Shown here piece by piece: positions 49,569 through 59,579 of a stretch of 64,000 nt of DNA. The notes under the pieces are model-generated. The model ran no database searches and was not told where the DNA came from. It saw only the letters and a list, made by a program, of their open reading frames with translations. Location: the NCBI RefSeq assembly GCF_053078305.1, contig NZ_CP166879.1. One strand, 5' to 3'. Position numbers and translations under genes: made by a program. Within the stretch, counting starts at the first letter, position 1, and each line of letters begins with the position of its first letter.

Positions 49569-52268
49569 ATGCGTAAATATCCTTTAAGTTTACTGAAGGA
49601 TAAAAATATTGTGACTTTCTTTGATTTCTGGGGAAAAACCCGACGCGACGAGAAAGAAGGGGGTGACGACTATCACCTTCTTTGCTGGCATTCGCTGGAT
49701 GTGGCCGCGATGGGCTATTTAATGGTTAAAAGAAATTGCTTCGGGCTGGCTGATTATTTTCGTCAATTAGGGATTTCTGACAAGGAACAGGCGGCTCAAT
49801 TTTTCGCCTGGTTGTTGTGCTGGCACGATATTGGAAAATTTGCCCGCTCATTTCAGCAACTTTACCTGCACCCACAACTCAAGGTTCTGGAAGGCGCAAG
49901 AAAGAATTACGAAAAGATCTCTCATTCAACGCTGGGCTACTGGTTGTGGCATCATTATTTAAGTGAATGCGAAGAATTGCTTCCTGCCTCTTCACTCTCT
50001 ACTCGCAAACTTAAACGTGTAATAGCGATGTGGATGCCCATGACTACCGGGCATCATGGTCGGCCCCCTGACCGTATTGATGAACTGGATAATTTTCTGC
50101 CTGAAGACAAAGCTGCCGCACGAGATTTTCTCCTTGAAATCAAGTCACTGTTTCCGCTCATAGAGATTCCCACATTCTGGGATGATGACGAGGGCGTTGA
50201 ACTTTTAAAACAACTTTCCTGGTATATCTCTGCAACAGTCGTACTCGCAGACTGGACGGGTTCGTCAACGCGATTTTTTCCACGCGTCGCACAGACAATG
50301 AATATTAAAGATTACTGGCAGAAAACTTTAGTTCAGGCTCAAAACGCCTTAACCGTCTTTCCTCCAAAAGCAGAAACCGCACCTTTCACCGGAATTAATA
50401 CGCTGTTTCCTTTTATTGAGCACCCGACACCATTACAGCAAAAGGTACTGGATCTGGATATCAGCCAGCCAGGGCCACAGTTATTTATTCTGGAAGATGT
50501 GACTGGCGCAGGTAAAACAGAAGCGGCGCTTATCCTGGCGCACAGGTTGATGGCTGAGAATAAAGCTCAGGGTTTGTTTTTTGGCCTGCCAACAATGGCA
50601 ACGGCCAATGCCATGTACGATCGGCTGGTCAAAACCTGGCTTGCTTTCTTTTCGCCAGAATCCCGCCCCAGCCTGGTGCTGGCACACAGCGCCCGTACAT
50701 TAATGGAACGCTTTAATGAATCACTCTGGTCCGGTGATTTAGTCGGGTCAGAAGAACCGGATGAACAAGCGTTCAGTCAAGGATGTGCAGCCTGGTTTGC
50801 CGACAGTAACAAGAAGGCTTTACTGGCTGAAATTGGCGTCGGCACGCTGGATCAGGCGATGATGGCAGTGATGCCGTTTAAACATAATAATCTGCGGCTT
50901 CTGGGGTTGAGTAACAAAATCCTGCTGGCTGATGAGATCCACGCCTGTGACGCTTACATGTCGTACATTCTTGAAGGGTTGATTGAGCGACAGGTGCGTG
51001 GCGGAAACAGCGTCATTTTGCTTTCTGCTACGTTATCTCAACAGCAGCGCGACAAACTTGTCGCCGCCTTTGCGCGTGGCACAGAGGGCCAGCAAGAAGC
51101 TCCGTTCCTGGAAAAGGATGATTACCCCTGGCTGACGCATGTCACGAAATCCGATGTGCATTCGCACCGGGTAGCGACGCGCAAAGACGTTGAGCGTAGC
51201 GTGAGCGTGGGTTGGCTTCATAGCGAACAAGAATGTATTGCGCGTATCGAATCAGCGGTAAGTCAGGGGAAATGCATCGCCTGGATCCGGAATTCTGTCG
51301 ATGACGCTATTAAGGTTTATCGTCAGTTACTTGCCCGCGGCGTCATTCCTGCTTCCAGCCTTTCACTTTTTCATAGCCGCTTTGCTTTTAGCGATCGCCA
51401 GCGAATTGAAACGGAAACGCTGGCACGCTTTGGTAAAAATTGTAGTTTAAAAAGATCATCTCAAGTCATTGTTTGTACACAAGTAATTGAGCAAAGTGTG
51501 GATATTGACCTGGACGAAATGATCTCCGACCTGGCCCCCATTGATTTGCTGATCCAGCGAGCGGGGCGATTACAACGGCATATTCGTGATATTAATGGTC
51601 AGTTAAAACGTGATGGAAAAGACGAGCGTTCCCCTCCTGAATTGCTGATTCTGGCCCCCGTCTGGGACGACTCTCCGGGTGACGAATGGTTTGGTAGTGC
51701 GATGCGTAACAGCGCATATGTCTACCCCGATCATGGGCGAATCTGGCTGACGCAGCGAGTATTGCGTGAGCAAGGCGCTATTCAGATGCCACACGCAGCC
51801 CGGCTTCTTATTGAATCCGTCTACGGTGAGGACGTGGTAATGCCGGAAGGATTTGCCCGCAGCGAGCAGGAGCAAGTGGGCAAATATTACTGCGATCGCG
51901 CAATGGCTAAAAAGTTTATGCTGAACTTCAGGCCCGGCTATGCCGCCAATATCAACGATTACCTCCCGGAAAAGCTGTCGACACGTCTGGCTGAAGAGTC
52001 TGTTTCCCTGTGGCTGGCTACCTGTATTGACGGTGTGGTGAAGCCTTATGCCAGCGGTGCTCACGCATGGGAAATGAGCGTTGCCAGAGTGCGTCGAAGC
52101 TGGTGGAAAAAACATCGGGATGAATTTTCTTTACTGGAAGGGGAAGCGTTCAGGCAGTGGTGCATTGAACAACGGCAAGATCCGGAGATGGCAAACGTGA
52201 TTTTAGTCACCGATGACGAAAGCTGCGGGTATTCGGCTACGGAAGGATTGATTGGCAAGGTTGATTGA
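49569..52268 (+). CDS. cas3: Cas3 HD nuclease / helicase (type I-E)
   Basis: 899 aa; HD motifs (HSLDVAA, HDIGK), Walker A (GAGKTEAA), DEAH-like box (LADEIHACD); preceded by AT-rich promoter region. Confidence 0.92.
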   Translation: MRKYPLSLLKDKNIVTFFDFWGKTRRDEKEGGDDYHLLCWHSLDVAAMGYLMVKRNCFGLADYFRQLGISDKEQAAQFFAWLLCWHDIGKFARSFQQLYLHPQLKVLEGARKNYEKISHSTLGYWLWHHYLSECEELLPASSLSTRKLKRVIAMWMPMTTGHHGRPPDRIDELDNFLPEDKAAARDFLLEIKSLFPLIEIPTFWDDDEGVELLKQLSWYISATVVLADWTGSSTRFFPRVAQTMNIKDYWQKTLVQAQNALTVFPPKAETAPFTGINTLFPFIEHPTPLQQKVLDLDISQPGPQLFILEDVTGAGKTEAALILAHRLMAENKAQGLFFGLPTMATANAMYDRLVKTWLAFFSPESRPSLVLAHSARTLMERFNESLWSGDLVGSEEPDEQAFSQGCAAWFADSNKKALLAEIGVGTLDQAMMAVMPFKHNNLRLLGLSNKILLADEIHACDAYMSYILEGLIERQVRGGNSVILLSATLSQQQRDKLVAAFARGTEGQQEAPFLEKDDYPWLTHVTKSDVHSHRVATRKDVERSVSVGWLHSEQECIARIESAVSQGKCIAWIRNSVDDAIKVYRQLLARGVIPASSLSLFHSRFAFSDRQRIETETLARFGKNCSLKRSSQVIVCTQVIEQSVDIDLDEMISDLAPIDLLIQRAGRLQRHIRDINGQLKRDGKDERSPPELLILAPVWDDSPGDEWFGSAMRNSAYVYPDHGRIWLTQRVLREQGAIQMPHAARLLIESVYGEDVVMPEGFARSEQEQVGKYYCDRAMAKKFMLNFRPGYAANINDYLPEKLSTRLAEESVSLWLATCIDGVVKPYASGAHAWEMSVARVRRSWWKKHRDEFSLLEGEAFRQWCIEQRQDPEMANVILVTDDESCGYSATEGLIGKVD

Positions 52269-52271
52269 GAT

Positions 52272-52323
52272 GCCCTGGCGTCGGATGACGCCAGGGCTTA
52301 TCCCCGCTGACGCGGGGAACAGG
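52272..52323. repeat. Perfect 11-bp hairpin followed by inverted orphan CRISPR-repeat-like sequence
   Basis: GCCCTGGCGTC-ggat-GACGCCAGGGC at 52272-52297; minus-strand reading of 52295-52323 is CCTGTTCCCCGCGTCAGCGGGGATAAGCC, 25 of 27 identical to the array repeat. Confidence 0.8.
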
Positions 52324-52718
52324 AACCAATTTTTGTATCTCACTAACTTGGTTAATCCCTAGAATCAGGGAATGGATTTATTTTATCAATGCTATTGTGA
52401 TTATGATAGATGGGTAATTGCTATGAGTTAATGAGAAACAAAAATTTTAAATAATGTCCGGATCCGGAGTTGAGTCACACCGTTACAAGGCGTATTTTCG
52501 TGACCGGTGAAAAGCTGCGGTGAAGAGGACTACGATGTTGTCGATTTTTTTGCTTCAACTTGTGCTAAGTCTGCTTTCAAAACGACAAACTAAGTTCGAT
52601 TTTCGTATCACATTCAACGTCTTTTCTTTTATCCGACTCAGATTAAGTCTCCAACTAAATCTGAAAATATGGTGATGGACAACCGACCAGGGATGGTCTT
52701 TTCTACGAGAGGATGCGT

Positions 52719-58193: not shown

Positions 58194-58483
58194 GCATGGT
58201 CGTGGTTGTTACAGAAAATGTCCCTCCGCGCTTACGTGGACGGCTCGCAATCTGGCTACTGGAAGTGCGTGCCGGTGTGTATGTTGGTGATACATCAAAA
58301 CGTATTCGGGAGATGATCTGGCAGCAAATTACCCAACTGGCTGGTTGCGGAAATGTGGTGATGGCCTGGGTGACCAATACCGAGTCGGGTTTTGAATTTC
58401 AGACCTGGGGAGAAAACAGACGTATTCCGGTGGATTTGGATGGGTTACGTTTGGTTTCTTTTCTTCCTGTTGATAATCAATAG
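58190..58483 (+). CDS. cas2: Cas2
   Basis: 97 aa; ATGA overlap with cas1; similar to recalled E. coli Cas2. Confidence 0.92.
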
Positions 58484-58579
58484 GTTATGTGTTCTTTAAA
58501 AATAAGGAAATGTTTGAATTTAGTTGGTAGATTGTTGATGTGGAATAAATTTGTTTAAAAACAGATATGTATGCTTAGT
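58484..58579 (+). promoter_or_regulatory. CRISPR leader for array 1
   Basis: AT-rich, contains AGTTGGTAGATTGT at 58522-58535, 45 nt upstream of first repeat. Confidence 0.8.
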
Positions 58580-59579
58580 GTGTTCCCCGCGCCAGCGGGG
58601 ATAAACCGGGGGGGCAATAATATGTGCGGCGGATCACCAGGTGTTCCCCGCGCCAGCGGGGATAAACCGTCGGAAAAATGGCTGGCCTCAACGGTGAAAA
58701 CGTGTTCCCCGCGCCAGCGGGGATAAACCGCCAGGGTGAAACTTTTCGCTGACGTAAATAAAGTGTTCCCCGCGCCAGCGGGGATAAACCGACAATCACA
58801 TATACGACGCGAGACGGAGATCGGTGTTCCCCGCGCCAGCGGGGATAAACCGTGATGGGCGAATACAAGCGCTGGCGCAACGAGGTGTTCCCCGCGCCAG
58901 CGGGGATAAACCCGGCATTCTTAACCGGCGCAACAAGGGGGGCGCGTGTTCCCCGCGCCAGCGGGGATAAACCGGTTAACTCCAGGTGGCGCGGCAGTGT
59001 TCAGAAGTGTTCCCCGCGCCAGCGGGGATAAACCGTGCTCTCATTTGTGTCGGCATCACTCGCGTCGGTGTTCCCCGCGCCAGCGGGGATAAACCGTCTG
59101 CCGCGAGCTGGTCTACGCCTACGCCATGGTGTTCCCCGCGCCAGCGGGGATAAACCGACATATGCCACAACCAGGCGAAGAAAAGTGTTCCCCGCGCCAG
59201 CGGGGATAAACCGCCCGTCACCGACGCGCAGTGGCGCTACCGTGAGTGTTCCCCGCGCCAGCGGGGATAAACCGGTCGCTGGGTTATTTTGTGTTGTGGG
59301 GCGATCGTGTTCCCCGCGCCAGCGGGGATAAACCGCTCATATTCGGATTGATCGTGTGTTTCGGTTTGTGTTCCCCGCGCCAGCGGGGATAAACCTGCGT
59401 ATATCTGTTGATGCGCACGGCGTGGCGGGTGTTCCCCGCGCCAGCGGGGATAAACCGAATGATTTAATACCAGACGCAGAGTGCCACACGTGTTCCCCGC
59501 GCCAGCGGGGATAAACCGGGCGCACTGGATGCGATGATGGATATCACTTAGAATTCCCCGCCCCTGCGGTAGAACACCC
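58580..59579 (+). CRISPR. CRISPR array, 17 repeats (GTGTTCCCCGCGCCAGCGGGGATAAACCG), 16 spacers
   Basis: 61-bp periodicity except one 56-bp unit (27-nt spacer at 59158-59184); degenerate terminal repeat GAATTCCCCGCCCCTGCGGTAGAACACCC at 59551-59579. Confidence 0.97.

Follow-up and report, generated by a model that had tools for sequence, protein, structure and literature searches.

Between positions 49569 and 59579 of the 64-kb stretch of contig NZ_CP166879.1 analysed here (the window) lies a type I-E CRISPR-Cas locus (short palindromic repeats that are clustered and regularly interspaced, with the CRISPR-associated genes) of Escherichia coli. Its cas3 and cse1 genes are separated by a gap of 450 bp, compared with 97 bp in most E. 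coli that carry the same, non-K-12 form of the system (variant 2). What does the long gap contain, and what might it do? The observations described below suggest an intact E. coli non-K-12 I-E locus, in the gap of which a mini-CRISPR most likely gives CreR-type autorepression of the Cascade operon; the probability of this reading is put at about 0.8. The full long gap is common to only 6 of 5426 complete E. coli genomes, and 10 more carry its first 57-104 nt.

Anatomy of the mini-array

Directly after the cas3 stop codon, and antisense to cas3, the gap carries a degenerate repeat, a pseudo-spacer, a near-intact repeat and a hairpin, an arrangement that was overlooked in the first-pass annotation of this DNA. 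The predicted target of the pseudo-spacer, flanked by a protospacer-adjacent motif (PAM), lies further into the same gap. The elements are the following:

52272-52297: G+C-rich hairpin of 11 bp, GCCCTGGCGTC-GGAT-GACGCCAGGGC, directly after the cas3 stop codon, overlapping the last 4 nt of psiR2
52294-52322, minus strand: psiR2, near-intact repeat CTGTTCCCCGCGTCAGCGGGGATAAGCCC, composed of CTGTTCCCCGCGTCAGCGGGG and ATAAGCCC, 25 of 29 positions identical to the array repeat
52323-52348, minus strand: psiS, 26-nt pseudo-spacer AGTTAGTGAGATACAAAAATTGGTTC; the adjoining trinucleotide on the same strand is CCA, not a PAM
52349-52375, minus strand: psiR1, degenerate repeat CCATTCCCTGATTCTAGGG with the 8-nt handle-like ATTAACCA, forming a hairpin plus handle
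52431-52426 (-35, TTAACT) and 52408-52403 (-10, TATCAT), minus strand: sigma70-like match, candidate promoter of the mini-array; the only consensus match in the gap, with its -35 element overlapping the target
52423-52425 (ATG PAM) and 52426-52446 (21-nt partial protospacer AGTTAATGAGAAACAAAAATT), plus strand: predicted Cascade/psiS target, 78 nt from psiS

The minus-strand RNA folds into the three expected hairpins, with z = -6.6 relative to shuffled sequences. The stem of the terminal hairpin is kept through different sequences in E. coli TUM14771, Klebsiella spallanzanii, Atlantibacter and Chimaeribacter, and a psiR2 equivalent occupies the same place in K. spallanzanii and Atlantibacter. 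K. spallanzanii, Atlantibacter and Chimaeribacter have conserved the psiR1-type hairpin together with a handle of the form xTxAACCx. In the psiR2 stem, a compensatory change from C-G to U-A is found both in E. coli strain 135 (52307/52312) and in Atlantibacter; compensatory stem changes were judged by inspection. A metagenome scan for the psiR2 plus hairpin motif returned a single contig.

Match between the pseudo-spacer and its target

The psiS guide matches the target at positions 1-5, 7-11 and 13-21, with mismatches only at positions 6 and 12 (19 of 21), and there is no pairing at positions 22-26. In type I Cascade every sixth guide base is flipped out and remains unpaired with the target. 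The target site is unique within the window. Shuffled versions of psiS reached a seed match with a PAM in 2 of 2000 cases in the window, and in 0-2 of 2000 per locus across the loci compared.

Eight loci were compared, namely the window allele, those of E. coli strain 135, N3 (the same allele as on a gut metagenome contig), TUM14771 and K-12, and those of K. spallanzanii, Atlantibacter sp. and Chimaeribacter californicus. The same mini-array architecture is present at the same place in all of them, with pseudo-spacers of 19, 20, 26, 32 and 33 nt that differ in sequence. In eight of eight, a site with a full seed match to the pseudo-spacer and an AAG or ATG PAM is present in the cas3-cse1 gap of the same locus. 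Within positions 1-11, mismatches are found only at position 6 (seven of the eight loci) and, in K-12 alone, at position 9; position 12 is mismatched in seven of the eight. The K-12 element is likewise an antisense mini-array just after cas3, and its partial target is flanked by AAG. In E. coli TUM14771, the mini-array and its own target (AAG PAM, 11 consecutive nt) are kept though cas3 is annotated as frameshifted.

The gaps of the window and of strain 135 differ at 15 positions, 14 of which are within 52307-52463. Besides the paired change in the psiR2 stem, position 15 of psiS (52334) and position 15 of the target (52440) have changed together, and a further change affects the unpaired target position 6 (52431). 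These 14 differences fall in the first 195 nt of the gap, and there are none in the next 240 nt (52464-52702), which indicates that the gap of window and strain 135 is a recombination mosaic.

The repeat and hairpins in the gap might also be read as a non-functional scar, left by an old array or by a recombination junction between cas modules, which would serve at most as a stem-loop or terminator at the 3' end of cas3. The position of the hairpin directly 3' of the cas3 stop codon would agree with such an origin, as would the proposal of Touchon and Rocha that cas genes are replaced via recombination at CRISPRs (PMC2886076). So would the gaps of 89-97 bp, which lack the element, in most variant-2 E. 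coli, E. albertii and Escherichia sp. MOD1-EC7003. A scar, however, would not retain a PAM-flanked seed match with the above pattern of mismatches in eight loci whose guides differ, nor would it give joint changes of guide and target, and of the two sides of a stem, between alleles. As for a terminator, no U-run follows the hairpins on either strand. The scar explanation is therefore regarded as unlikely, and autorepression by a guide-bearing mini-array is preferred.

Proposed mechanism of autorepression

By analogy with the established I-E pathway, the transcripts of the two CRISPR arrays in the window would be cut by Cas6e to CRISPR RNAs (crRNAs), and Cse1, Cse2, Cas7, Cas5 and Cas6e would assemble with a crRNA into Cascade. 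Cascade would then locate protospacers flanked by AAG or ATG and recruit Cas3 for the degradation of the DNA, while Cas1-Cas2 would add new spacers at the leader. The RNA of the mini-array, once expressed, would also be processed by Cas6e and loaded into Cascade. The psiS RNA is expected to pair with only the first 21 nt of the PAM-flanked site in the same gap. As the pairing would be limited to these 21 nt, Cascade would bind without licensing Cas3 and would thus lower transcription of the Cascade operon.

This type of regulation has been described for the I-E system of Salmonella enterica, in which creR represses PcasA about 8.6-fold via a 15-nt, AAG-flanked partial match located about 140 bp upstream of casA, and in which the repression senses the crRNA load and anti-CRISPRs (Liu et al., 10.1101/2023.03.10.532045). 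Mini-arrays have been reported in about 19% of bacterial I-E loci, where they are found in long cas3-cas8e gaps, run against the direction of cas3 and have the promoter region of cas8e as their target; 'typical' I-E loci have short gaps and no mini-arrays (Shmakov et al., 10.1101/2023.03.03.530964). Phage mimics of the Salmonella I-E CreR were described in a later preprint (10.1101/2024.10.29.618823). No phage mimic of psiS (Cracr) was found in the phage collection. At the level of sequence, the window element has the properties expected of CreR, that is, two pseudo-repeats, a PAM, seed-proximal partial pairing and co-variation. It appears to fit the published class of regulatory mini-CRISPRs as a further member, kept in a rare long-gap allele.

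Several observations weigh against this mechanism. The mini-array is dispensable, since most variant-2 E. coli, with their 97-bp gap, are without it. The target is 293 nt upstream of cse1, compared with the distance of about 140 nt reported for Salmonella, and the target strand varies among the loci, being plus in the window and N3 and minus in K. spallanzanii, Atlantibacter and TUM14771. Consensus scans for promoters and terminators in five intergenic regions gave counts at the level of shuffled sequences and no consistent promoter at the target. Because these scans were at chance and inconsistent among relatives, no claim is made as to the promoter that would be blocked. Processing by Cas6e and loading into Cascade are assumed here, because psiS is 26 nt long rather than 32 nt and psiR1 is strongly degenerate. 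Finally, E. coli I-E systems are typically silenced by H-NS, as is known for K-12, and this bears on the activity of the system in the present strain.

Small open reading frames ahead of cse1

The part of the gap between the target and cse1 contains a small, unannotated open reading frame (ORF):

52535-52675, plus strand, co-oriented with cse1: ORF of 46 aa, MLSIFLLQLVLSLLSKRQTKFDFRITFNVFSFIRLRLSLQLNLKIW, N-terminus hydrophobic, preceded at 7 nt by the Shine-Dalgarno sequence GAAGAGGA

It begins 89 nt downstream of the target and overlaps an inverted repeat at 52637-52661. A basic ORF of 32 aa (MEEKPNRYKRLFCRLMIRLGNKLSVSFQLSVR and its relatives) is conserved just upstream of cse1 in three other loci:

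K. spallanzanii (locus L010): 2513-2611
E. coli TUM14771 (locus L049): 1815-1913
Atlantibacter (locus L013): 9845-9943

Between K. spallanzanii and TUM14771, 14 codons of the 32-aa ORF differ only synonymously and 8 non-synonymously (counted by hand). The predominance of synonymous differences suggests that the ORF is under purifying selection and is, in those loci, a genuine small gene missed by annotation; in K. indica (locus L027) it is truncated.

These ORFs raise the question of whether the mini-array acts as the antitoxin in an addiction module like CreTA, in which Cascade would repress a toxic product, the 46-aa ORF, and loss or inhibition of Cascade would harm the cell. The ORF is suitably placed downstream of the target, in the direction of cse1 and with a Shine-Dalgarno sequence, and the 32-aa gene with its excess of synonymous differences is found at the same place in relatives. 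Toxin-antitoxin genes are also enriched between mini-arrays and cas genes (Shmakov et al., 10.1101/2023.03.03.530964). Yet the 46-aa ORF is only weakly similar to the 32-aa family, shows no nucleotide differences by which selection on it could be gauged, and has no homologue in the protein collection, the N3 allele of E. coli has the mini-array and the target but no such small ORF, and there is no sign of toxicity. An addiction module is thus considered decidedly improbable. There is also a slight chance that the mini-array RNA, in addition to its presumed action on Cascade, gates a transcript that starts near 52426-52446 and runs through the 46-aa ORF before cse1. If this were the case, the variant-2 Cascade operon would begin with a CRISPR-repressed gene for a small protein not described before, which could act as a toxin/addiction element or as a regulator.

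Gene content and integrity of the cas locus

The proposed autorepression presupposes an intact Cascade operon. ORFs were listed over 47.5-62 kb of the window, and their proteins were scored against NCBIfam models at the curated cut-offs. The cas genes are as follows:

49569-52268, plus strand: cas3, 899 aa, a single chain that combines an HD nuclease with a DExH helicase (above the cut-offs of TIGR01596 and TIGR01587)
52719-54281, plus strand: cse1 (casA, cas8e), 520 aa (TIGR02547, 610 bits)
54278-54814, plus strand: cse2 (casB, cas11), 178 aa (TIGR02548), overlapping cse1 by 4 nt
54829-55884, plus strand: cas7e (casC), 351 aa (TIGR01869, 448 bits)
55895-56641, plus strand: cas5e (casD), 248 aa (TIGR01868)
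56623-57273, plus strand: cas6e (casE), pre-crRNA endonuclease, 216 aa from an internal ATG (TIGR01907, 291 bits), overlapping cas5 by 19 nt
57270-58193, plus strand: cas1e, 307 aa, GTG start (TIGR03638, 379 bits)
58190-58483, plus strand: cas2e, 97 aa (TIGR01873)

The first-pass annotation had described a complete I-E locus with eight cas genes in canonical order, and this agrees with the scores, each ORF exceeding the curated cut-off of the matching NCBIfam I-E model. The signature genes of the subtype, cse1 (cas8e) and cse2 (cas11), are present together with cas7e, cas5e and cas6e, and all five are above their cut-offs. None of the eight ORFs has an internal stop. Translational coupling by overlap had been proposed for the whole series from cse1 to cas2; overlaps are present at four of the six junctions, and the remaining two are open, cse2 and cas7 being 14 nt apart and cas7 and cas5 10 nt apart. 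The start of cse1 at 52719 is that of the RefSeq annotation of a 99.7%-identical locus, whereas the ORF listing begins at 52713.

The catalytic residues are in place. Alignment of Cas3 with the K-12 protein shows that H86/D87 of the HD motif, the Walker A lysine K316 and D455-E456-x-H458 are conserved. Cas6e retains the catalytic histidine equivalent to H20 of K-12, and Cas1 has an intact active site (E141/H208/D218/D221).

An Rfam scan of 48900-59700 reported sok alone and no CRISPR- or cas-related family. This hit belongs to a hok/sok type I toxin-antitoxin system between cysH and cas3 (49082-49376), which consists of sok at 49082-49239 (111.7 bits) and, at 49224-49376, the intact Hok ORF of 50 aa; K-12 retains only sokX at this position.

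Chromosomal site and variant

The 13.6 kb upstream of the locus (ygc genes, cysJIH) are 98.9% identical to E. coli chromosomes and are matched by all but one of the 5426 complete genomes; downstream, the neighbours are iap, cysD, cysN and cysC. The cas locus is thus at the classical iap-cysH CRISPR site of the E. coli chromosome. An origin of the window from an Escherichia species other than E. coli was rejected in view of the 98.9% identity of the flanks.

The proteins were aligned one by one with those of the MG1655 locus, which served as the K-12 reference. Identity is 31% for Cas3, 23% for Cse1, 33% for Cas7, 35% for Cas5 and 32% for Cas6e; Cse2 is about 25% identical in a poor alignment. 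Cas1 and Cas2 are 84% and 85% identical, in keeping with their earlier description as close to K-12. The divergence first noticed in Cas3, Cse1 and the N-termini of Cas5 and Cas6e is borne out and extends to all six interference proteins (23-35%), none of which is near-identical to K-12. Correspondingly, the window proteins score well below the cut-offs of the K-12-derived models NF007248 (Cas3) and NF007247 (Cse1). At the DNA level, similarity to K-12 is found only from the start of cas1 onward. As it amounts to only about 70-80% there, the adaptation module is slower-evolving rather than a recent recombinant.

Two types of E. coli I-E system, 'var. K-12' and 'var. B-8552', were distinguished in a 2025 survey (PMC12736100). 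The gene lengths of the window locus, 2700/1563/537/1056/747/651/924/294 nt, are the eight lengths published for var. B-8552, and the identity figures are the same as well. The locus fits the description of this type, in which the effectors are about 23-32%, and Cas1 and Cas2 about 84-86%, identical to K-12. The suggestion that it belongs to a second I-E variant known in E. coli is thus well founded. Touchon and Rocha had noted in 2010 that E. coli cas genes from groups E and B1, and those of Shigella, have a history different from that of group A, and that there are several E. coli cas lineages, some of which group with S. enterica (PMC2886076). The alignments support the view that the locus is a complete I-E system of a non-K-12 lineage (O157-type, var. 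B-8552). The variant itself has been described since 2010 and was quantified again in 2025; the locus adds a textbook case of the commoner form.

The cas operon is matched in 2792 of the 5426 complete E. coli genomes, with matches covering 80% or more of the operon in 2408 of them; the match to O157:H7 is at 95%. At 2792 of 5426 genomes, the variant constitutes the majority form in E. coli rather than an oddity. The strains ECNB21-M121, JX21CE8 and 23CRST027/031 carry the allele of the window. This exact allele (at least 99% identity) is found in only 4 of the 5426; the closest operon, at 99.7%, is that of E. coli ECNB21-M121. The Cas proteins are 93-100% identical to those of other E. coli alleles (Cas3 93-94%). 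Relative to the O157:H7 type, with which the neighbours cysH, hok/sok and iap are shared, the values are 84-99% per protein, Cse2 being the lowest at 84%. Identity to E. albertii is 92-99%, and that of the effectors to Citrobacter, Klebsiella and Phytobacter is 70-88%. A Cse1 97% identical to that of the window is encoded on contig JAIJJM010000114.1, binned as 'Collinsella sp.'; this contig is almost certainly E. coli DNA mis-binned into a metagenome-assembled genome.

Identity of the operon to most E. coli variant-2 operons is only about 95%, compared with 98-99% for the upstream flank, and only four genomes reach 99%. This might be taken to mean that the locus was recently acquired from Salmonella or some other genus and is not a resident E. 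coli allele. The proteins are, however, 93-100% identical to those of other E. coli alleles, as against 70-88% to those of Citrobacter, Klebsiella and Phytobacter; the chromosomal site is the same, the trailer-end spacers are common to thousands of E. coli, and an E. coli strain has the identical leader. Recent import is extremely improbable in the light of these findings.

CRISPR arrays and leader

The window contains two I-E arrays:

58484-58579, plus strand: A+T-rich leader of the cas-adjacent array, 96 nt, identical to the leader of E. coli ECNB21-M121
58580-59579, plus strand: cas-adjacent array of 17 repeats and 16 spacers, 15 spacers of 32 nt and one of 27 nt
31646-32528, plus strand: second I-E array, belonging to this system, on the ygcE-queE side, 15 repeats and 14 spacers, repeats starting with GAG

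The leader and the array of 17 repeats had been placed and counted correctly in the earlier description. The cas-adjacent array is made up of 16 copies of the 29-nt palindromic repeat GTGTTCCCCGCGCCAGCGGGGATAAACCG at a spacing of 61 nt, each with at most one mismatch, and a degenerate 17th, terminal copy. In all, 31 repeats were counted in the window, where 0 are expected by chance. The 27-nt spacer is spacer 10 (59158-59184). It sits at the border between the private spacers 1-10 and the common spacers 11-16, and no full-length version of it was found in the 5426 E. coli genomes.

The repeats at 58885-58913 and 59368-59396 end in C and T, respectively, instead of G; the T-ending one is common to ECNB21-M121. 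In E. coli, the last base of the repeat derives from the PAM of the acquired protospacer, and these two repeats may thus record acquisitions from non-AAG sites. In the second array, a C to T change in the loop (GCGCTAGC) is present in the 12 leader-proximal repeats and missing from the three oldest. This pattern suggests serial copying of a mutated first repeat, that is, serial acquisition after the mutation. Two decayed repeats are located about 500 bp past the second array, at 33031-33120.

The start of the cas-adjacent repeat with GTG rather than GAG had been taken as a Salmonella-like mark. It is not diagnostic: GTG also begins repeats beside the variant-2 cas genes of O157:H7, E. albertii, Citrobacter, Klebsiella and Atlantibacter, among others, and one repeat of K-12. 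As the second array of the window starts with GAG, the difference tells apart the two arrays of one genome and not Salmonella from E. coli. The reading of GTG repeats as evidence of Salmonella ancestry was accordingly rejected.

Spacer targets and sharing

The search for spacer targets covered the 30 spacers of the two arrays and was run, as had been proposed with the first-pass annotation, on 50,697 phage and 72,556 plasmid records; recognisable targets were found for two of the 30, spacers 7 and 13. Spacer 7 matches a lambdoid phage at 33 of 33 positions. Of the 470 E. coli genomes matched by the query of spacers 1-10, most owe the match to spacer 7, in the corresponding prophage. One of these is the ST131 strain JJ1886, where the protospacer (2070616-2070648) lies beside the Q antiterminator and holin genes of a lambdoid prophage widespread in ST131-type genomes. 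For spacer 13, the match (31 of 33 positions) is in another phage, in the gene for the major capsid protein; both protospacers are in lambdoid (pro)phage DNA. The PAM is ATG at both protospacers, which amounts to an AWG-type PAM on two data points.

The plasmid matches were rejected as protospacers, because they are CRISPR arrays on mislabelled chromosomes or on pIOMTU792. This conjugative IncHI2A plasmid (NZ_LC542972.1, 245436-248467) has captured a piece of a chromosomal I-E locus comprising cas1e-cas2e, iap and an array in which the trailer spacer common in E. coli is present, a case also reported in PMC12736100.

Spacers 11 and 13-16 are common to other E. coli, the trailer spacer being present in most genomes. 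Spacers 1-10 are private, except for spacer 4, which is present in one other array (RM8082). The array of ECNB21-M121, the leader of which is identical and the operon 99.7% identical, begins with spacer 11 of the window. The arrangement is consistent with ten acquisitions in the window lineage or with a loss in ECNB21-M121.

Significance

Almost all mechanistic work has been done on the K-12 variant, whose effectors are 23-35% identical to those present in about half of E. coli, including O157:H7. To judge from sequence, the window allele would provide a CreR-type mini-array occurring naturally in variant-2 E. coli, with a shortened 26-nt guide and clear co-variation of guide and target. Most variant-2 strains have lost the mini-array, their gap being about 350 bp shorter. 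Because of this loss, the long-gap and short-gap forms could be compared directly for any effect of autorepression on cost, on the sensing of crRNA and on resistance to anti-CRISPRs in E. coli. The claim is a small one as a discovery, the system being known and common, and its practical value is modest.

Comparison with known systems

The system closest to that of the window is E. coli var. B-8552, or the O157 type, with which it shares the site between cysH-hok/sok and iap, the gene order, the gene lengths, the 29-nt repeat and the trailer spacers. Compared with the var. B-8552 types O157:H7, ZYS9073 and XDL, the gene lengths are identical and the proteins are 93-100% identical, apart from Cse2 of O157 (84%). 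The window differs from the usual var. B-8552 in its cas3-cse1 gap, 450 bp with a mini-array instead of 97 bp, and in its 10 leader-proximal spacers, which are private with the partial exceptions of spacer 4 (RM8082 array) and spacer 7 (prophage protospacer).

The I-E system of K-12 has the same subtype, gene order, locus and repeat family, and its Cas1 and Cas2 are 84-85% identical to those of the window. The six interference proteins, in contrast, are 23-35% identical, and the K-12-specific NCBIfam models fail in the window.

With CreTA, the mini-array has in common that a degenerate mini-CRISPR would guide Cascade to a promoter inside the cas locus. Unlike CreTA, the window has no identifiable toxin, only a small predicted ORF downstream of the target.

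The likeness to CreR and other I-E mini-arrays extends further. In both cases the cas3-cas8e gap has, antisense to cas3, a pseudo-spacer between two degenerate repeats; the handle is retained in psiR1 and the hairpin in psiR2; and the seed-proximal part of the guide would pair with a PAM-flanked site upstream of casA/cse1. The differences from the CreR of S. enterica, as known from its published description, are that psiS of the window is 26 nt long and that its PAM is ATG instead of AAG.

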